Source of the DNA: a virus
Lineage: Duplodnaviria > Caudoviricetes
DNA length: 64,000 nucleotides
Strand: one strand, 5' to 3'
Virus record (IMG/VR): IMGVR_UViG_2524023245_000003
Span: 398 to 64,397 of that record
Shown here in pieces: positions 3,396 to 33,248 of this stretch. The translations under genes were made by a program, and so were the position numbers. The notes under the pieces were generated by a model. The model was given only the letters and a program-made list of their open reading frames with translations, did no database searches and was not told the DNA's origin. Each line of letters opens with the position of its first letter. Position 1 is the stretch's first letter.

Positions 3396-3400
3396 ACGGG

Positions 3401-3430
3401 TTGACACCTTGCAGCACGTGATGCAAGGAT
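3401..3430 (+). promoter_or_regulatory. Sigma70-type promoter overlapped by a 22-bp palindromic operator
   Basis: TTGACA (3401-3406), 18-nt spacer, AAGGAT; palindrome CCTTGCAGCACGTGATGCAAGG at 3407-3428. Confidence 0.7.
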
Positions 3431-11437: not shown

Positions 11438-14400
11438 TCACCTCCTTCCCGCGCGGAGCGCCGTCGCCAGCTGCTGCTCGCTGGTGCGCACCTCGGTGCG
11501 GACGATGTCGGTGATCTCGCGGTCGCCGACGTAGACGGCGACGTGCAGGTCACCGAGTGACGCGGCCCCGTCTGATCCGCGCGCAGCCGCACCCGTCAGC
11601 GCGGACATCTGCTGCCTCGTCAGCACGGGCTCGGGGCGGCCGGTGCCGTTGTAGACCGTGGACAGGCCCGGAGGGAGGTAGCCGCCGGAGTCGTAGCCGC
11701 CGGGCCGCGACATGCGCGCCGCCCAGCCCTTGCCGTACCGGGAGCGGGCGTACCTGATCCCGGCGTAGATGTTGGCGTACGGGTCATACGCACCGCGGCT
11801 CTTGTACCGCCCCGCGTACGCGTTGAAAGTGGGGTCGATCGTCTGGATCAGACCCTTCGACGGGGTGCCCCGATCCGCGTTGGAGTCCCACAAGTTGATC
11901 GCGCGCGGGTTGCCTCCGGACTCCTTCGCGATGGTGCGGAGCACGGCGTCGAGGTTGTATTTCGAGTAGATGCCCAGCTCGCGCAGCACCGCCGAGGCGA
12001 CGCCGCGCCAGCGTCCGGCGCCCTTCCCGGAGCCGCCCCCGCCGCCCGTCAGGTACGGCATCGGGTCGGTCGGCTTCCCGTGCCTCCGGGCTTCCAGGTG
12101 CAGGTGGGGGCCGGAGGTGTTGCCGGAGGCGCCGACCTTGCCGATGGTCTGCCCCCGGTCCACCGCACCGGACTTGAGCGCCATGGAGGAGAGGTGCGCG
12201 TACAGGCTGGACAGGCCGCCGCCGTGGTCGATCGCAATGTGCTGCCCGTAAGGGCCCCCGTTGCGCGCCGCCGCGACGCTGCCCTTGTCGACCGCGCGCA
12301 CCGTCTTCCCCGTCGGCGCCGGGAAGTCCAGGCCGGTGTGCCGACCGGAGGACCACATGGCGCCGCGCGCGCCGAAGCGTGTGCCGTACTTGGCGTCCAC
12401 CGGCTTGGCCCACTGCCCGGACCCCATCTGCGAGTCCTCGGACCCCTTGATCGCGTTCAGGGCCTCGTCCAGCAGGCCCTTCGGCAGCGCCGTCGCGAGC
12501 TTCCCGAATCCGGACTTCCCGCCGGGGATCTTCCCGATCAGGTCGCGGATCGGCTTCGCCGCAGCCTTCACCCCGGCATACACGCCGCCGAGGGCCAGAT
12601 CCTTCAACTTCCCGACAGCGCCCTTGACCTTGCTGACCGCGCCCTTCGCGGCGCCCTTGACGACCCCGGCCGTCCAGTCGATCGGGCCGCCATGCGCGCC
12701 GGTGGGGGCGACAGCGCCGCCCTTGGCGTAGGCGGTGCCGGACCGGCGGGCTGCGGCGCGCATGGACTCCATCGCCGCGTGACCGCCCGCACCCCGCACC
12801 TCCTTCGCCGTCCACACGTGCTCGTTGTGGGACAGCGCGGCGGGAATGGAGTCTGACGTCTCGGTACCCGCCCCGTAGACGGGGCCGCCTGTCGCCCAGC
12901 CATCGACCTTGAACTTGTCCTTGATTGGTTTAATCGGCAGGACCTTGGCGGCGGCATTCCAGAGACCACGAATGCCCTTGTTGTAGACCATGTCGATGAT
13001 CCAGGCGATCGGCTTCTTCGTCAAAGTCTTCAGCTTGTTCCAGGCTTTGCCGATGCCGTCCTTCGCCGTAACGAAAGCATCCTTGACCTTGCCGACGGCC
13101 GTCTTGATGGCGTCGAATTGAGGCTTGATGCCCTTCCGGTACAGCCATTTTGCTTTGTCGGAAATCCAGTTGAAGACCGGGCGGATCACCTTGTTCCACA
13201 GCCAGGAGGCGACAGATCCGATACCCCGGAATGCGGGGGCGAGGGCCTTTTGCCACAGCCACTTTCCCACCGCCGCGAGGAACCGGAGAATCGCTATCCA
13301 CGCGTTGACCTGCGGCCTGATGATCTTCTGCCACAGCCAGGAGGCGACCGCGGCGATCCCCCGGAAGACCGGGGCGAGCACCTTCTGCCACAACCACCTG
13401 CCGACCGCCGCAAGCAGCTGGAACGCGACGACGATCGGGCCGACGACGAGGACCGCCACGATCATCAGCAGCCACTTCGCGACAGTGGCGATGCCCTGGA
13501 AGGCGGGCCAGATCGCTTTCCGCCACAGCCACACGGCGATACCGCCCACGAATTGCAGCGCCGCCCAGATCGCGTCAAGTGCAGGCTTCAGGACGGAATT
13601 CCACGCCCACGACGTGGCTGCGGTGATCCCGTCCCAAGCCGCCTGCACCGCAGTGCGGAACCAACCAAAATTTTTGTACGCGTAGACGACGGAGGCGACG
13701 AGCAGCACGATCAGCGAGATGATCCGCACAATCGGATTCATGTTGATGACCAAATTGAGTAGGACGAGAGAGAGCGTCCACAGTTTGGTTGCGACCCATA
13801 CCAGGTAAAGGAGTTGGAGCAGCCAGGGCAGCGATTCCGAGATGGACGCGATCGCGCGCGCCACACCGCCGAGGATTTGCAGCAGCGGACCCGACAGCGG
13901 CGACAGTGCGCGCGATACTTCGAGTACCGCACTCGCGATGTCCCCGAAAGTGGCCGCGAGTTGTGGCCCCATCTCCGCCGAGTAGGAGAGGAACCCCTCG
14001 AACTCCGGCGATCCCTTCAGGTTGGTGCCCCAGTCGGCGAACCCTCCGGTGATCGACTGCATGCGGGCCGAGATCGAATCCATGTGCGGCAGGAACGCGG
14101 CGATGATGCCGCCGACGCCCTTGCCGATGTTGCCGAGGGCGACACCGAGACCGACGACCGCAGGCCGCACCGACCCGGACAGGTCCTTCTTGAACTCGGC
14201 CCAGCCAGCCGACTTGAAGCCCCTGCTCGCCTTGTCCTGGAGTTCTCCGATGGCCTTCGCGGCCTCCAGGACGAACGGCGTCAGCCCCGGCAGGCTGTTC
14301 CTCATCCCGTTCAGCGCGCGCGTGAAGATCGGCATGACCGCAGGCTGAAGAGCCCTCGACCATGCCGTGAACGCGCTGCGCAGAGACACGAACGCGTCGA

Positions 14401-16708
14401 ACGTGCCCCTCGCCGACGGAGTCAGCTTCGCCAACGCGGCCTGGTACTTGGCCTGCGCGGTCGCCGCAGCGTCCGCACCGCCAGCGGTCCGGATCTGCGC
14501 CGAGCGGACCTGCGCCTCCGCAGCGGCGATACTGTCCGCCGCCGACTGCCGTGCCGCCGCCACCTGCCGCTGAGCCCGCGCCACCGACTGCGCGGCCTGC
14601 TGCTCCGCCGCACCCACCGCCGCCTGAGCGCGCGCCACCGAGCGCGCACCCTCCTCCTGAACGCGAGCCACATTCCGCTGCGCGACCGCGACCCTCTCCT
14701 GCGCCGAAGCGATACCCCGCGAATTCGCGACCTGCTGGCGGGCCATCTCCTCCCGCGCCTTGGACAGGCCCGCCTCCTGGGAGGCGACACCGCGCTGCGC
14801 CGCGACCAGCCGCTCCTGCGCGGACCGCACCCGCTCCGTGCCGTCCACGCCGGACTTGTCGGCGGCGCGCTTGTCCGCGGCGAGGCGCTTCGTGTCCAAC
14901 TGCTGCTCGCGCAGGCGTTGGACCGCCTGGTCATACGCCAGCTGCGCGCGCTGCTGCTCCAGCAGCGTCGCCTTAGACCCGGCCACCTGCGTGGCGCGCA
15001 GCCGCGCCTGCGCCTCCTGCACGGACAGCGTCGCGTCCCGCTCGGACAGCTGCGCACCGGCGAGCCGAAGCGACAGATCCTGAAGCTCCGCCGCCGCATC
15101 CCGGCGGGCCTGAGTCAGATCCGTCTGCGCCTGCCGGGCCGTGCGCTGCGCATCCGCCAAGGACTGCTCGGCAGCCTGCACCCGCTCGCCCGCCGCGCGC
15201 ATCCGGTCCGCGGCCTGCTCGTAGGCGCCGGCGAGTGCCTGCCGGGCCGTGCGCACCTGCGCGGCAGCCGCCGTGCTGGCCTGCGCCGCCTGCCGCACCG
15301 CATCGGCCACGCCCTGCTCGGCCTGGGCAACACGCGCCGCACCATCCCGAACGGCGTCCGCGACACCCCGCTGCGCCTGGCCGATCTGCTGCCCCGCATT
15401 ACGGTGCGCCAGCGCCAGCTGCCGCTGCGCACCGGACTGCTGGAGTGCCTGCCGGGCCGCCGCCGCAGCAGCCTGCCCACCCTGGCCAGTCGACTGCGTG
15501 GCGGCGTCCTGCGCGGCCTTCTGCGCTTCCAGGGCCCCGGCGATGTCCTTGATGGCCGGGGCTGCGGCGAGTCCGAGCGCGCCGACGCCCGCCGCTGCGG
15601 CGGTTGCCGCTGCGGCGATCGACCCGATCCCGGCGGCCAGCACCGGTATGGCCGGGATGGCGGCGAGCCCGGCCACCGCGATGGCGAGCTGGAGCACCGC
15701 GCTCCGCGCCTGCCTCGTGGAGACGTTGATCTCGGCTCGCTGCCCGTCAAGGGCGGACACCATCGCCTGCACGGTGGCCAGCTGCGCCATCGCCGCAGCG
15801 GCATCCACACGCACAGCGACGTCCGCGTTAGACGCGGACAGCCGCTCCAGGCGGGCCTGGAGGTCGGCGACCTTGGCGGCGGCTGTTGCGGCGTCCATGT
15901 CGACGCCGATACGGACATCCCGCAGCGCGGTGAGCTGGCTGCGCAGGGATGCGATCTCCGCCTGCGCAGGGCTGGTGTCGGCCCCGATGTTGATGTTGGG
16001 GAGGGCAGCCTCGGCCTGCTGCACCGCGACGCGGAGCCGCTGCCCGAAGGTGCCATCGGTCTCGACCCGCACCCGCGCGGGATCAGCGGAGATGCGGTCG
16101 ATCTCCGCCCGGACGGCAGCCAGCTCAGCGCGGGCCCGCGCAGTGTCCGCGCGGACCGTCACGTCCGGGTGTGACGCGCCGAGCCTGCGCAGCTGCTCCT
16201 CGATCTCCTCGATCTCGGCGCGGGCCTCCGCCGCGTCCAAGTCGACGCCGATCGTGCGGCCGGACAGCGTCTCCATGCGGGCACGGAGCGCCTGAATATC
16301 AGCGTCAGCTTCCGAGGTGTCGGCGCCGATCGTGACGTCCGGCAAAGACCTGAAAGCCGCCTCGATCCGGGCACGGGCGGACCGCGCGAACGCCCCGCCG
16401 GTCTGCTCGCCCTGCCGGGTCGCCGCAGGACGGGCAGTGCGCCCGCCCTGGGTGATGCCGTCCCGCAGAGCGCCCCGGATCTCCGCCGTGATGCGGGCGG
16501 CGATCTGCGAGCCGATCTGCTGCCCGATCTGGAGGCCGATACCGCCGACCTCGGACCGCATCGCCGGGCCGAAGCTGCGGCCGGCGGCGTTGCCCGCGTC
16601 CTCCCCGGCGCGGGTCGCCGCCGGAACCAGCGCGCCCCGCAGCTGGGTGTAGATGCCGCGGGTGTTCGGGACGACATCGACCTCGACGCTGCCGACACTG
16701 ATCGCCAC
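11438..16708 (-). CDS. Tape measure protein with C-terminal M23 peptidase and lytic transglycosylase domains
   Basis: 1756 aa Ala-rich helical, TM region, HTGLD...YAHL...PHLHLE (M23), ESGGNPRA...GLIQ (SLT). Confidence 0.95.
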   Translation of the reverse strand: MAISVGSVEVDVVPNTRGIYTQLRGALVPAATRAGEDAGNAAGRSFGPAMRSEVGGIGLQIGQQIGSQIAARITAEIRGALRDGITQGGRTARPAATRQGEQTGGAFARSARARIEAAFRSLPDVTIGADTSEADADIQALRARMETLSGRTIGVDLDAAEARAEIEEIEEQLRRLGASHPDVTVRADTARARAELAAVRAEIDRISADPARVRVETDGTFGQRLRVAVQQAEAALPNINIGADTSPAQAEIASLRSQLTALRDVRIGVDMDAATAAAKVADLQARLERLSASNADVAVRVDAAAAMAQLATVQAMVSALDGQRAEINVSTRQARSAVLQLAIAVAGLAAIPAIPVLAAGIGSIAAAATAAAAGVGALGLAAAPAIKDIAGALEAQKAAQDAATQSTGQGGQAAAAAARQALQQSGAQRQLALAHRNAGQQIGQAQRGVADAVRDGAARVAQAEQGVADAVRQAAQASTAAAAQVRTARQALAGAYEQAADRMRAAGERVQAAEQSLADAQRTARQAQTDLTQARRDAAAELQDLSLRLAGAQLSERDATLSVQEAQARLRATQVAGSKATLLEQQRAQLAYDQAVQRLREQQLDTKRLAADKRAADKSGVDGTERVRSAQERLVAAQRGVASQEAGLSKAREEMARQQVANSRGIASAQERVAVAQRNVARVQEEGARSVARAQAAVGAAEQQAAQSVARAQRQVAAARQSAADSIAAAEAQVRSAQIRTAGGADAAATAQAKYQAALAKLTPSARGTFDAFVSLRSAFTAWSRALQPAVMPIFTRALNGMRNSLPGLTPFVLEAAKAIGELQDKASRGFKSAGWAEFKKDLSGSVRPAVVGLGVALGNIGKGVGGIIAAFLPHMDSISARMQSITGGFADWGTNLKGSPEFEGFLSYSAEMGPQLAATFGDIASAVLEVSRALSPLSGPLLQILGGVARAIASISESLPWLLQLLYLVWVATKLWTLSLVLLNLVINMNPIVRIISLIVLLVASVVYAYKNFGWFRTAVQAAWDGITAATSWAWNSVLKPALDAIWAALQFVGGIAVWLWRKAIWPAFQGIATVAKWLLMIVAVLVVGPIVVAFQLLAAVGRWLWQKVLAPVFRGIAAVASWLWQKIIRPQVNAWIAILRFLAAVGKWLWQKALAPAFRGIGSVASWLWNKVIRPVFNWISDKAKWLYRKGIKPQFDAIKTAVGKVKDAFVTAKDGIGKAWNKLKTLTKKPIAWIIDMVYNKGIRGLWNAAAKVLPIKPIKDKFKVDGWATGGPVYGAGTETSDSIPAALSHNEHVWTAKEVRGAGGHAAMESMRAAARRSGTAYAKGGAVAPTGAHGGPIDWTAGVVKGAAKGAVSKVKGAVGKLKDLALGGVYAGVKAAAKPIRDLIGKIPGGKSGFGKLATALPKGLLDEALNAIKGSEDSQMGSGQWAKPVDAKYGTRFGARGAMWSSGRHTGLDFPAPTGKTVRAVDKGSVAAARNGGPYGQHIAIDHGGGLSSLYAHLSSMALKSGAVDRGQTIGKVGASGNTSGPHLHLEARRHGKPTDPMPYLTGGGGGSGKGAGRWRGVASAVLRELGIYSKYNLDAVLRTIAKESGGNPRAINLWDSNADRGTPSKGLIQTIDPTFNAYAGRYKSRGAYDPYANIYAGIRYARSRYGKGWAARMSRPGGYDSGGYLPPGLSTVYNGTGRPEPVLTRQQMSALTGAAARGSDGAASLGDLHVAVYVGDREITDIVRTEVRTSEQQLATALRAGRR

Positions 16709-16736
16709 GAGAGGACCCCCTCTCGCGGTGGAGCGC

Positions 16737-17195
16737 CTATGCGGCGCCCCCGTTGATCAGCCGGAACAGCACCTCGGCGGCGCCGTCGGTCATGGCGGCC
16801 GTCTTCTTCTTCGGCGGCTTCGCACCCGGCCGACGGATCGGCTCCGGCGCTTCCGGCCGCTGGCTCTTCTTCTCGGTGTTGACGCAGATCAGCACGTACT
16901 CCAGGCGGGCGATCCGGTCAGCCATGAGCGCGAGGAGCTGCTCGGTCTGCGACCATCGGCCCCGCTCGGGCTCACCCTGCTCGGACTGCTCCGCCAACTC
17001 CTCGTCCGACATCGAGTTGCGGAGCGCGGTCATCGTGTGGGACTCGGGCGGCAGATGCTGGATCAGCACCCGCAGCCTGCGCCACGTCATGAGCCCTCGG
17101 TGCACATCAAGGACGTCGTGCCCGCGGTCGAGGAGGTCGGCCTCTACCGCCTCCGCGTGCTCCTCGAGGACCCGCGCGGTCCACTGGATTTCCCC
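16737..17195 (-). CDS. Tail assembly chaperone, -1 frameshift extension (gpGT-like)
   Basis: Slip at GGGGAAA opens EIQWTARVLEEHAEAVEADLL...WRRLRVLIQHLPPES, running to stop at 16737. Confidence 0.85.
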   Translation of the reverse strand, partial: GEIQWTARVLEEHAEAVEADLLDRGHDVLDVHRGLMTWRRLRVLIQHLPPESHTMTALRNSMSDEELAEQSEQGEPERGRWSQTEQLLALMADRIARLEYVLICVNTEKKSQRPEAPEPIRRPGAKPPKKKTAAMTDGAAEVLFRLINGGAA

Positions 17196-17500
17196 AGGGC
17201 CTCCCCGGACTTCTGCGCGACGTCCCCGGCAAACTTGCCGAACGAGTCCATGTCAGGGTCGAGATCCTCGAAGATCTCGTAGTCGTCCTCATGCAGGCTG
17301 GCCCGCATGAACGCGTCGATGTCGCCGTTGTTGAGTGCGCGGATTGTCGAGGAGCGCCAGCGGCCGGACGGGACGCAGCGGACATCCTTGGTGACCCCGT
17401 CATACCCCGCCAGCGGCACGGTGACGTACTCGACATCCTCCGCCTCCGCCTCCTGCGCTTCGGCGGCGGCTTCGGCGAGGGCTTTCTTCGTGGTGGGCAT
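17144..17500 (-). CDS. Tail assembly chaperone (gpG-like); alternative in-frame upstream start at 17680
   Basis: AGGAGG RBS, ends ALGKSSG...; between major tail and tape measure genes. Confidence 0.88.
   Translation of the reverse strand: MPTTKKALAEAAAEAQEAEAEDVEYVTVPLAGYDGVTKDVRCVPSGRWRSSTIRALNNGDIDAFMRASLHEDDYEIFEDLDPDMDSFGKFAGDVAQKSGEALGKSSGPRGSSRSTRRR
17189..17195 (-). other. Programmed -1 ribosomal frameshift slippery site G GGG AAA
   Basis: CTG GGG AAA TCC in chaperone frame; -1 frame is open into the downstream ORF. Confidence 0.85.
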
Positions 17501-17760
17501 GGCGCGGGCCTCCTGATGGCATTCGCATGAGCAGTAGAGGATGTAGTCGGAAGTGGTGAGCCAGGTACAGCCGCGGTGCAGGCCGTCGGCGCACATGCCG
17601 CTGAGGGCCTTGTGGCTTTGGAATTGAGTGCTGTTGATCAGGTCCGCGAGGAAGTCCTCGTCGGACATGTGTCTGCCCATGGCGCGGGCCTCCTTGTGGC
17701 GCGGGACTTGGTTGTGCAGGTGGCGGGCCGGGCCCGCGCCAGGGACGGCCCGCCACCCGT

Positions 17761-18345
17761 TCAGGACGCCGGTTCGGCGGGCGTGGCAGGTACGGAGTCG
17801 GCGTGGTAGACGGTGTTTCCGGCCTCGTCGGGGTAGGCGGTGACTGTGATCTCGTAGCCGGACATTTCGTCCTGCTTGAACGTCACGTCGGACCGGTCGG
17901 ACACCTCGCCCTGGGGGACGTAGAAGCCCTTCGCGGTCTCCCCGTCCATCACCAGGAACCACCAGGCGCGGCGGTCCGGGACCGGCGATGCGGTCTCCGC
18001 GAAGCTCGTGAGGCCGCCGACGGGCTCCAGGTCAGCGGCGGGCAGCCGGTACATGACGGACTGGACGGCGACGCGGGAGGTCTCCCACAGGGTCACCCCG
18101 AACGTCCGCACCGACTTGGTGATCATCGTGCGGAAAGGAGAGGTCAGACCCCACGGAGTGAACTCCTCGGAGTCCTCATCGAAGCCATAGACGAGCCCGT
18201 CGTCCGACGTCGCGCCGAGCGGCTCCCACGGAGTCAGAGGTTGAGTGAGCGGCGTCGCGGGCGCGGCCGTTCCGGTGGGCGCGACCCATCCGCCGCCGTT
18301 CGCGCCGACGACCGTAAGGTCCGAGGCGCGCGTGATGTTGACCAT
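17761..18345 (-). CDS. Major tail (tube) protein
   Basis: WEPLGATSDDGL...TPWG...YEITVTAYPD; synteny. Confidence 0.92.
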   Translation of the reverse strand: MVNITRASDLTVVGANGGGWVAPTGTAAPATPLTQPLTPWEPLGATSDDGLVYGFDEDSEEFTPWGLTSPFRTMITKSVRTFGVTLWETSRVAVQSVMYRLPAADLEPVGGLTSFAETASPVPDRRAWWFLVMDGETAKGFYVPQGEVSDRSDVTFKQDEMSGYEITVTAYPDEAGNTVYHADSVPATPAEPAS

Positions 18346-18420
18346 GAGGTCTCCCAACATGCAGAAACCCCAGCTCAGGGCTGGGGTTCAGGGGTTACAG
18401 GACCGGCGCGGGCCTGCCGG

Positions 18421-18819
18421 TCAGGAGACCGGGTGTGCGTAGATCTGATACGTCGCGCCCACACGGCGGAGGGCGGTGTTCTCGTAGGGCCTGGAGCTGG
18501 GGGCGGAGATGGTGACCACGCGGCCGACGACCGCCGTGTCCGTTGCGGAGCCCCGGAGGTCGGTGAGGAGCCAGCCGCGAACCTGCGCGGCCAGCGCGAC
18601 CGCCTCGCCGCGGGTCGCGGCGTACACGTCGACGTCGACCAGCGCGGCATCGAGTCGCAGCCCGTCATCGGCGCCGCCCACCCGCTCCACCTGAATCGTC
18701 GGCAGCTCGTCCACCAGGTTGTTGTCCAGCTCGTCACGGACCACGACCGACAGACCAGCGCGGGCCTGGAGCCAGCCGATCAGCAGCACCTCGACATCCA
18801 CCGAGCCGACGGCCGCCAT
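18421..18819 (-). CDS. Tail terminator protein
   Basis: LPTIQVERVGG...VDVDVYA motif; synteny. Confidence 0.85.
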   Translation of the reverse strand: MAAVGSVDVEVLLIGWLQARAGLSVVVRDELDNNLVDELPTIQVERVGGADDGLRLDAALVDVDVYAATRGEAVALAAQVRGWLLTDLRGSATDTAVVGRVVTISAPSSRPYENTALRRVGATYQIYAHPVS

Positions 18820-32835: not shown

Positions 32836-33150
32836 TCAGGCGGGGTCGTACGTGGCGGCGAACACGTCCGGCTTGCAGGGGTAGAACCTGCCGGGCTGCT
32901 TCTCGGGGATGATCCAGTCGCCGTGACGGGCAACCGCGAGTTCACCGTGGACGGTCCGGACATTCATGGCGATGAAGTTCGGACCATCTTCACCGCAGGT
33001 GTCGGACGCCTCGCTGGCGCTGATCTCACGCGCACCACCGGGGTTGGCGTCCTTGAAGGCGTCGCCGAGGAACTCGCACACCTCGCTCCAGGTAGTCCAG
33101 CGGAGCTGCACGGCGTCGATCTCTACGGGGCGCTTGCGGTAGCGGGCCAT
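32836..33150 (-). CDS. Conserved phage protein (RKRPVEIDAVQ...GDWII...YPCKPDVF family)
   Basis: Characteristic motifs; start-associated motif. Confidence 0.85.
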   Translation of the reverse strand: MARYRKRPVEIDAVQLRWTTWSEVCEFLGDAFKDANPGGAREISASEASDTCGEDGPNFIAMNVRTVHGELAVARHGDWIIPEKQPGRFYPCKPDVFAATYDPA

Positions 33151-33248
33151 GGCGCGGGCCTTCCTGTCGGCAGAGGTTGGGCCGTGCAGGGCGGGGCCAG
33201 CAGCACCCTTGCTTGTGGACGTCCCGCCCTGCGCGGGGTACTGGGGGG

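Follow-up and report, generated by a model that had tools for sequence, protein, structure and literature searches.

Organization of the locus

In this study, we analyzed a stretch of 64,000 nucleotides of viral DNA (Duplodnaviria; Caudoviricetes), hereafter called the window, which corresponds to positions 398 to 64,397 of the IMG/VR record IMGVR_UViG_2524023245_000003, and, within it, an optional 180-bp segment that is fused in frame to the beginning of a tail assembly chaperone (TAC) gene. On the minus strand, the order of the genes is major tail protein (MTP, 18360-17761), Cys/His segment and chaperone (17680/17500-17144), the T part of the chaperone, which extends to 16737, and the tape measure protein (16708-11438). 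The initial annotation, made from the sequence alone, had described a perfect 17-bp direct repeat on both sides of the in-frame segment, and our analysis confirms it: the 17-mer AGGAGGCCCGCGCCATG occurs on the minus strand at 17694-17678 and again at 17514-17498, with 0 mismatches between copies placed 180 bp apart. Each copy is an exact initiation unit composed of a Shine-Dalgarno (SD) sequence AGGAGG, an 8-nt spacer (CCCGCGCC) and an ATG codon. Copy 1 (17678..17694) forms the start region of the Cys/His open reading frame (ORF), and copy 2 (17498..17514) holds the canonical chaperone start inside the codons Q-E-A-R-A-M. The direct repeat can be extended to 23 nt at 91% identity. When up to two mismatches are allowed, the window contains three matches to the 17-mer, against 0.04 expected, and three or more were obtained in none of 100 shuffles; with at most one mismatch, these two copies are the only ones in the whole provirus record of 64,397 bases. 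The third, imperfect copy (GGAAGGCCCGCGCCATG, 33148-33164, minus strand) lies 3' of a different GC-rich hairpin and starts an unrelated ORF beginning MARYRKRPVEIDAVQLRW; the Cys/His segment is absent there, and the loop of that hairpin does not contain GGCGCGGG.

The segment between the two copies (17501..17680, minus strand; P0002) comprises 60 codons without a stop, in a frame that is continuous with the chaperone ORF, and encodes the peptide MGRHMSDEDFLADLINSTQFQSHKALSGMCADGLHRGCTWLTTSDYILYCSCECHQEARA, which is followed directly by the chaperone Met. Its translation contains the motifs C-x4-H-x2-C and CSCECH, within a core of the form C-x4-H-x2-C-x11-C-x-C-x-C-H, so that the proposal of a stop-free, Cys/His-rich stretch of 60 codons joined in frame to the tail chaperone also holds. 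This peptide is the only coding content of the 180 bp. A contig of 399 nt from sequencing run X1 (Logan), assembled independently, covers positions 17405-17803 in the filled form with 0 differences; therefore, the insert is not an assembly artefact of the record. We also observed that the chaperone frame remains open back into the tail tube gene, giving a 272-aa ORF from a GTG at 17962 (17144-17962, minus strand); this ORF is an artefact of open frames in GC-rich DNA, and translation plausibly starts first at the ATG at 17680, which is backed by an SD.

Empty and filled forms of the site in related phages

Related loci were collected by sequence queries. The chaperone retrieved seven loci, all of them with a single motif copy directly 5' of the chaperone ATG, a second chaperone type (from loci L011 and L012) retrieved 80 more, and protein P0007 four more. 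After the removal of duplicates, 84 distinct loci with DNA remained (the window included), one of which (L075) is cut off inside the chaperone and could not be scored. Five of the 83 scorable loci are filled (the window, L011, L012, L023 and L101), a share that is inflated by the retrieval of L011, L012 and L101 with the peptide or P0007 as the query, and the remaining 78 are empty. P0007, a protein of 168 aa found by an exhaustive profile search, constitutes a sixth filled form. The segment is located at the same junction, in frame, free of stops and followed by an internal Met in all six forms. The initial annotation had proposed to look for empty sites with one motif copy in related phages, and the alignment reveals precisely such sites, so the segment is not something that all relatives carry.

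The comparison of the filled locus L011 with the empty locus L015 shows a clean indel without any foreign patch: the two are 88-90% identical on both flanks and 93-98% identical at the junction. The insert is bounded exactly by the duplicated ribosome-binding site (RBS) and start codon, and a deletion between the copies would restore the architecture of the empty site, which agrees with the earlier suggestion of an insertion that preserves the RBS of the chaperone and could excise precisely. A contig from run X6, the assembly of another organism, aligned over window positions 17100-17745, skips from 17514 to 17722 with 42 other letters between these points; it is one further empty-site form.

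The two copies of the initiation unit have been kept to different degrees. The internal sequence GGCCCGCGCCATG is identical in the five filled loci, synonymous sites included, and is preceded by GGAGG in four of them; in nearly all relatives, the chaperone is preceded by GGAGGCCCGCGCC(A/G)TG. The upstream copy shows decay, mostly in the SD, in L011 (14 of 17 positions kept), L023 and L101 (with a GTG start), while the internal copy keeps the consensus. This pattern is consistent with an internal start that is the canonical one and an added start of lesser strength. In P0007, the residues MDDAT are found at positions 1-5, at the start of the Cys/His part, and again at 50-54, at the chaperone start; L101, its DNA relative, has VDDAT upstream only and MTSTT downstream. 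The MDDAT pattern hints that, in one lineage, one of the start regions has been converted by the other.

Most of the relatives (many of L024-L087) carry instead a basic N-terminal extension of 35-50 aa, rich in Ser, Thr and Arg (for example, ...TSRKPRTAARAASRP...), which is located some 100-130 nt before the chaperone match, and L012 carries both this extension and the Cys/His segment. Two kinds of extension at the same place, both present in L012, indicate that the N-terminus of the chaperone is a tolerated site for accessory modules. The 'PAEPAS'-type C-terminal tail of the tube protein was considered as a marker of filled loci and rejected, given that it is also present in L015, L016 and L102, which are empty.

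Protein-level constraint on the Cys/His segment

The segment is under constraint at the protein level. Over 32 core codons, the ratio of nonsynonymous to synonymous substitution rates (dN/dS) is 0.37-0.63, below 1 in all six pairs. Five Cys and two His residues are invariant in the five DNA-derived copies and in P0007, copies that differ from one another at about 25-35% of their nucleotides; the other invariant columns are S, G, D, L, W, Y and S, and the window differs from L011 by two synonymous changes within the ...YCSCECH... stretch. The start codon is kept in the four loci whose upstream end is visible. With respect to base composition, the initial annotation was right that the insert of the window has a lower GC content (0.59, versus 0.67-0.69 in the flanks), and this is not a sign of foreign DNA: the GC content at third codon positions (GC3) is 0.84, versus 0.87-0.89. 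The same holds across the filled loci, where the segment has a GC3 of 0.80-0.94 versus 0.87-0.95 in the flanking genes, and an overall GC content of 0.59-0.66 versus 0.67-0.72. Since GC3 is close to that of the flanks, the lower GC is an effect of amino-acid composition. The invariant Cys/His pattern suggests that the segment is probably a zinc- or metal-binding module. No match to it was found among the sequences of Pfam, NCBIfam or PDB (the latter at E <= 10). As a lead only, the look-alikes of the module in an atlas search were unnamed small viral clusters, with scores of 0.87-0.90.

It is important to consider that the segment could instead be a decaying relic, without function, whose frame is open by chance in GC-rich DNA and in which only the canonical downstream start is used. 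The upstream SD is indeed weak in L011 (AGGCAG) and L101 (GAAGAG, with the GTG start), the structural prediction has low confidence over the segment, and frames without stops are a common feature of DNA with 70% GC: in the empty loci L010 and L009, for example, 57 and 30 such codons precede the start. Against chance openness stand the seven Cys/His positions that remain invariant over six copies so diverged in nucleotides, the dN/dS below 1 in every pair, a GC3 that marks the coding frame, the kept start codons, and a profile-level match to real, annotated phage proteins, which is described below. We consider this explanation unlikely.

A conserved leader RNA upstream of the chaperone

Just 3' of the MTP stop codon lies a conserved hairpin (17719..17757, minus strand), with a 12-bp stem (GGTGGCGGGCCG / CGGCCCGCCACC) that is 100% complementary and a 15-nt loop containing GGCGCGGGCC (17740-17731). 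The loop has three complementary partners downstream in the window. The first, box 1 (TCCCGCGCC, 17698..17706, minus strand), pairs over 9 nt at 100% with positions 17733-17741; motif copy 1 is 93% complementary to the loop over 14 nt (17731-17744), reaching the AUG, and motif copy 2 is 100% complementary over 11 nt. We aligned the leaders of 34 relatives with empty sites and found three nearly invariant elements: the loop GGCGCGGGCC, box 1 (GCCCGCGCC), placed 31-38 nt after the start of the loop, and box 2 (GGCCCGCGCC), placed at 50-61 nt. Box 2 consists of the 3' end of the SD and the spacer to the start codon, that is, the core of the 17-mer, and the loop is the reverse complement of each box.

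In these 34 leaders, 95.8% of the cells of the 12-bp stem are paired, with 5 of the 12 pairs changed on both sides; the corresponding values are 99.0% and two pairs for the loop-box 1 helix, and 99.4% and one pair for the loop-box 2 helix. The covariation score of the whole structure was reached in none of 500 shuffles. The consensus loop is present in 70 of 77 leaders. Three loci of one clade (L018, L020 and L064) have the loop variant GGCGCGGTCC, with the matching C>A change in both boxes, and L010 has a variant of its own, for which both box 1 and the end of box 2 show the matching changes; these compensated variants in two independent lineages are suggestive of pairing between the loop and the boxes. 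A further box that matches GGCCCGCGCC perfectly is found in L037, L072 and L079, where it consists of the 'AARAA' codons of the N-terminal extension and lies 106-117 nt after the loop. The hairpin has no T-run terminator match, and no Rfam family matched within 16600-18500. Thermodynamic folds gave z-scores of -2.3 and -1.5. Nested folding gave start accessibilities that were inconsistent between loci, and nested models cannot represent a pseudoknot. Our literature search, in which most subscription journals were outside coverage, found no leader stem-loop described between tail tube and chaperone genes. The hairpin and the loop-box pairing may limit the translation of the chaperone relative to that of the tail tube protein.

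The perfect identity of the two 17-mers does not have to reflect a recent event. Across the 34 diverse relatives, the start of the chaperone shows almost no variation in the same 16 nt; the identity can thus result from constraint that acts on a regulatory unit, and it gives no date for the insertion. The leader also bears on two further proposals. According to one of them, the segment would be a regulatory leader ORF, whose translation from copy 1 remodels the loop-box RNA and sets initiation at copy 2, with the sequence of the peptide mattering less. As this proposal would have it, one and the same loop is complementary to box 1 and to the two start regions, and the upstream copies of the filled loci have preserved their CCGCGC(C/A) part better than their SD. 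Conservation is found at the amino-acid level, however, with synonymous changes at Cys and Ser codons; ribosomes that start at copy 1 meet no stop and would read through the chaperone rather than terminate and re-initiate; and in the nested folding models, accessibility did not differ in a consistent way. We regard this proposal as very unlikely. According to the other, the hairpin loop and its two complementary boxes (three in the window) would form a so far undescribed translational switch or pseudoknot that sets the ratio of tube to chaperone in a large group of actinobacterial prophages, the Cys/His module would be an RNA-binding zinc knuckle with feedback on the leader RNA, and the boxes would also serve as a recombination substrate for the gain and loss of N-terminal modules; taken as a whole, we hold this combination to be highly doubtful.

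Relationship with PHROG 15767 proteins

P0002 matches phrog_15767, a 37-position profile with no function assigned, at an E-value of 0.0047. Weak tblastn matches also led to two proteins of Arthrobacter phages, Judy gp66 (69 aa) and LittleTokyo gp29 (44 aa), annotated as hypothetical proteins, which match the same profile at E-values of 3.8e-15 and 1.6e-11. When the five cassette copies were aligned with gp66 and gp29 by hhalign, the probability was 89.9% and the E-value 1.7e-6 over 32 columns, with every ligand position aligned. The two proteins carry C-R-D-G-K-H-x2-C ... W-D-T ... D-C-P-C-x-C-H, and gp29 ends exactly in ...CECH followed by its stop codon. These results make it likely that the segment is related to the free-standing actinophage proteins of 44-69 aa grouped in PHROG 15767, with which it has in common the ligand pattern C-x-D-[GD]-x-H-x2-C ... 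W ... D ... C-x-C-x-C-H. The PHROG 15767 proteins differ in being encoded by separate genes with their own stop, in early or replication regions, next to a primase or polymerase, resolvase or HNH gene; the module described here has no stop (all six copies run into the chaperone) and is fused to a structural-assembly gene. Word-index protein searches did not find the peptide as a stand-alone protein of 33-105 aa or in a fused protein, and our literature search found no description of small Cys/His actinophage proteins. Protein P0011 (151 aa, lysine-rich, from a representative library) contains the pattern C-x-D-x2-H-x2-C ... C-x-C-x-C-H twice and matches the cassette profile at an E-value of 7.2e-4, which suggests that the module may be more widespread than the actinophages.

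Age, distribution and mobility of the segment

The segment has diverged to the same extent as its surroundings. Between filled loci, the nucleotide identity of the cassette core is 63-77%, compared with 72-76% for the MTP gene, 59-78% for the chaperone and 63-77% for the 600 nt downstream. Since the cassette is as diverged as its flanks, it is not a recent invader; it is an old indel. Its distribution was examined with a quick maximum-likelihood phylogeny of the MTP (79 rows, three of them filled) and, for the chaperone and its T part, with identity ranks. The three filled rows of the MTP tree fall in three separate, well-supported clades. By chaperone rank, the nearest relatives of every filled locus are empty, and the first filled relative appears at positions that range from 4th to 59th. 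Two histories fit these data: one old origin followed by many losses, for which 17-bp direct repeats offer an easy mechanism, or infrequent transfer by homologous recombination in the leader and start sequences, which are very conserved.

The initial annotation proposed a self-contained cassette that was integrated by recombination at the RBS and start motif and could excise precisely; in its full form, this reading makes the segment a mobile mini-cassette that moves between phages as a unit. Several observations are in line with it. The direct repeats bound the insert exactly, single-copy empty sites are common, and those filled loci that have an MTP belong to three separate tail-tube clades, with empty loci as the nearest chaperone relatives. 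The two starts of L023, and likewise those of P0007, remain similar for a few codons past the ATG, as in a local target duplication, and recombination at repeated regulatory motifs is known to shuffle ORFs in T4-type phages (Arbiol et al. 2010, PMC2839356).

The searches for the peptide elsewhere weigh against it, as they yielded only this one junction. Scans of viral contigs found it at no other site, and a broader rescan added no new filled locus (L108 proved spurious); the search of genome contigs gave only a spurious Lachnospiraceae match that shares 'DYILYCSC', with patterns narrow enough that variants of the L023 or L101 type could be missed; the five matches in metagenome contigs were all spurious; and a phage collection held no other site or context. 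Proteins P0008-P0010, retrieved by the exhaustive profile search, were rejected as homologues because they are noise from cysteine-rich repeats. The third copy of the motif in the window (33148-33164) starts an unrelated ORF, and L101, the DNA relative of P0007, does not have the extended repeat.

The segment also shows no sign of dedicated mobility. Six inverted-repeat pairs are present in 17400-17800, none of which bounds the insert, and the 180 bp encode no transposase or recombinase, or anything other than the peptide, so that features of a transposon or a miniature inverted-repeat transposable element are absent. Regarding the features of a moron, no sigma-70-like promoter and no T-run terminator were found in 17100-18400, in a scan that excludes actinobacterial promoter types. 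Added to copies that are as diverged as their flanks and have a similar GC3, these results leave the mobile mini-cassette improbable in our judgment. The segment is best read as an old optional indel rather than as a currently mobile element.

Gene neighborhood and identity of the chaperone

The MTP gene upstream (17761..18360, minus strand) encodes a tail tube protein of 199 aa that matches Pfam Phage_TTP_17 (E 1.2e-19) and phrog_117, major tail protein (E 1.5e-40). The tape measure protein gene (11438..16708, minus strand; 1756 aa) was assigned by its position and size. Between them, the G part of the chaperone (P0003, 118 aa; 17144..17500 with the stop included, minus strand) matches phrog_10551 weakly (E 1.3e-3, and 1.2e-5 for its relative P0007) and has no match in Pfam or NCBIfam. 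The T part (16737..17105, minus strand), in the -1 frame relative to G, matches four TAC families in the C-terminal part of their profiles (phrog_5813, 3656, 393 and 1326, with E-values from 4.7e-19 to 2.9e-8); the best match, to phrog_5813, covers profile positions 173-259 of 318. The AlphaFold2 (AF2) model of the fusion has a predicted local distance difference test (pLDDT) score above 90 over residues 80-160, which belong to the G part. A Foldseek search with this model returned nothing at E <= 1e-3; the HK97 TAC 2ob9 ranked 17th, with an E-value of 2.3. The position of the gene and the matches of its T part identify it as a tail assembly chaperone.

The passage from the G to the T part would take place at a candidate -1 slippery run read from the sequence, GGGGAAA (17189..17195, minus strand). 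The same run is found in L012, and L011 has the lambda-like G GGA AAG at the same place (about 3398-3404); read in the G frame, GGGGAAA does not form a canonical X XXY YYZ heptamer. Even the nearest relatives among cultured phages are distant, with 36% identity over 69% of the TAC for Streptomyces phage Samy and about 40% for the MTP of Gordonia phages. A blastn search with 16700-18400 for close phage genomes gave only a 43-nt match, in a Gordonia phage. The window has a GC content of 0.714. Judging by these distant actinobacterial phage relatives of the TAC and MTP, the record is a prophage of actinobacterial type, and its predicted host is a high-GC actinobacterium.

A proposed optional module with its own start

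Our study favors, with somewhat better than even confidence, the explanation that the 180 bp are an optional N-terminal chaperone module, probably zinc-binding, with its own duplicated start and with long and short isoforms. In this explanation, a small Cys/His domain of the free-standing type would have been joined to the chaperone long ago, in an event that duplicated the chaperone initiation unit (SD, 8-nt spacer and ATG). As a consequence of that duplication, the module would have a start of its own and the chaperone would keep its canonical start inside the fused frame. Initiation at the upstream start would produce Cys/His-G, plus Cys/His-GT by way of the -1 frameshift, and ordinary G and GT would come from the internal start; the weak upstream SD of L011 and L101 would make the long forms minor products there. 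The motif would be kept identical because it is itself a regulatory element, whose spacer pairs with the hairpin loop. The absence of the module from most relatives would most likely result from deletion between the motif copies or from homologous exchange through the conserved leader, dedicated mobility being less likely.

Some of our results weigh against this explanation. The minimum on the MTP tree is three changes of any kind, a value for which shuffled labels are no worse; a history of losses only needs many of them, and the segment may have been gained independently in different lineages. The junction of L015 (...GCCCGCGCCATGATCTTGGAGGCCCGCGCCATG) is not the simple recombination product of the two copies of L011. 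The single-sequence match to PHROG 15767 is weak, with E <= 1 for one of the four cassette copies (P0002, and not those of L011, L023 or L012), and a dN/dS of about 0.4 on only 32 codons is modest. The AF2 model, computed with no metal, has a pLDDT of 46-56 for the Cys/His part, so that its fold and metal binding are without structural support. Lastly, no RNA run is among the sequencing runs listed for the locus, and the use of both starts has been deduced from the sequence.

Comparison with known systems and significance

In phages with lambda-type tails, the assembly chaperones gpG and gpGT are made by a programmed -1 frameshift. The gene described here resembles that system in its location between the tail tube and tape measure genes, in having a G part followed by a T part in the -1 frame, and in the G-rich candidate slippery run near the end of G; it differs in the extra N-terminal Cys/His module with its own start, and in four possible products instead of two. 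Our literature search found no TAC with zinc or with an N-terminal extension. Nested in-frame dual starts are known in phage genes such as lambda S107/S105 and T7 gene 4A/4B. As in those genes, two in-frame starts would yield two proteins, one longer than the other, that share their C-terminus; in the present case, by contrast, the long form comes from an added domain that is polymorphic as an indel, and both starts are putative.

The PeSLs of T4-type phages offer another parallel. They are promoter-plus-terminator units found at many sites, with many different ORFs and with detectable mini-circles (Arbiol et al. 2010, PMC2839356). The two systems have in common a repeated regulatory sequence that flanks a small optional ORF, which recombination between the copies would delete or move. 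They differ in that the repeat studied here is a unit of SD, spacer and start codon, known at one site, with one ORF family, and with no evidence of circles among the assembled contigs. The presence at many sites that is typical of PeSLs is not found, as the record holds two exact copies and the near-copy at 33148-33164 has an unrelated ORF.

These results do not overturn current views; they add a well-documented variant and one possibly new cis-regulatory motif. Tail assembly chaperones are a textbook case of recoding, in which two proteins are obtained from one gene by frameshifting, and if our explanation is true, an indel-polymorphic N-terminal domain with a duplicated start adds a second layer to it and raises the number of isoforms to as many as four. 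The locus would then also illustrate cleanly, in nature, how a small phage gene that stands alone elsewhere can be captured as a domain with the start signal of the recipient preserved. The leader RNA, a covarying hairpin whose loop matches the spacer between the SD and the ATG and which is absent from Rfam, is the most novel by-product of the analysis, and it provides a testable model of how siphophages may lower the output of the chaperone relative to that of the tail tube protein.

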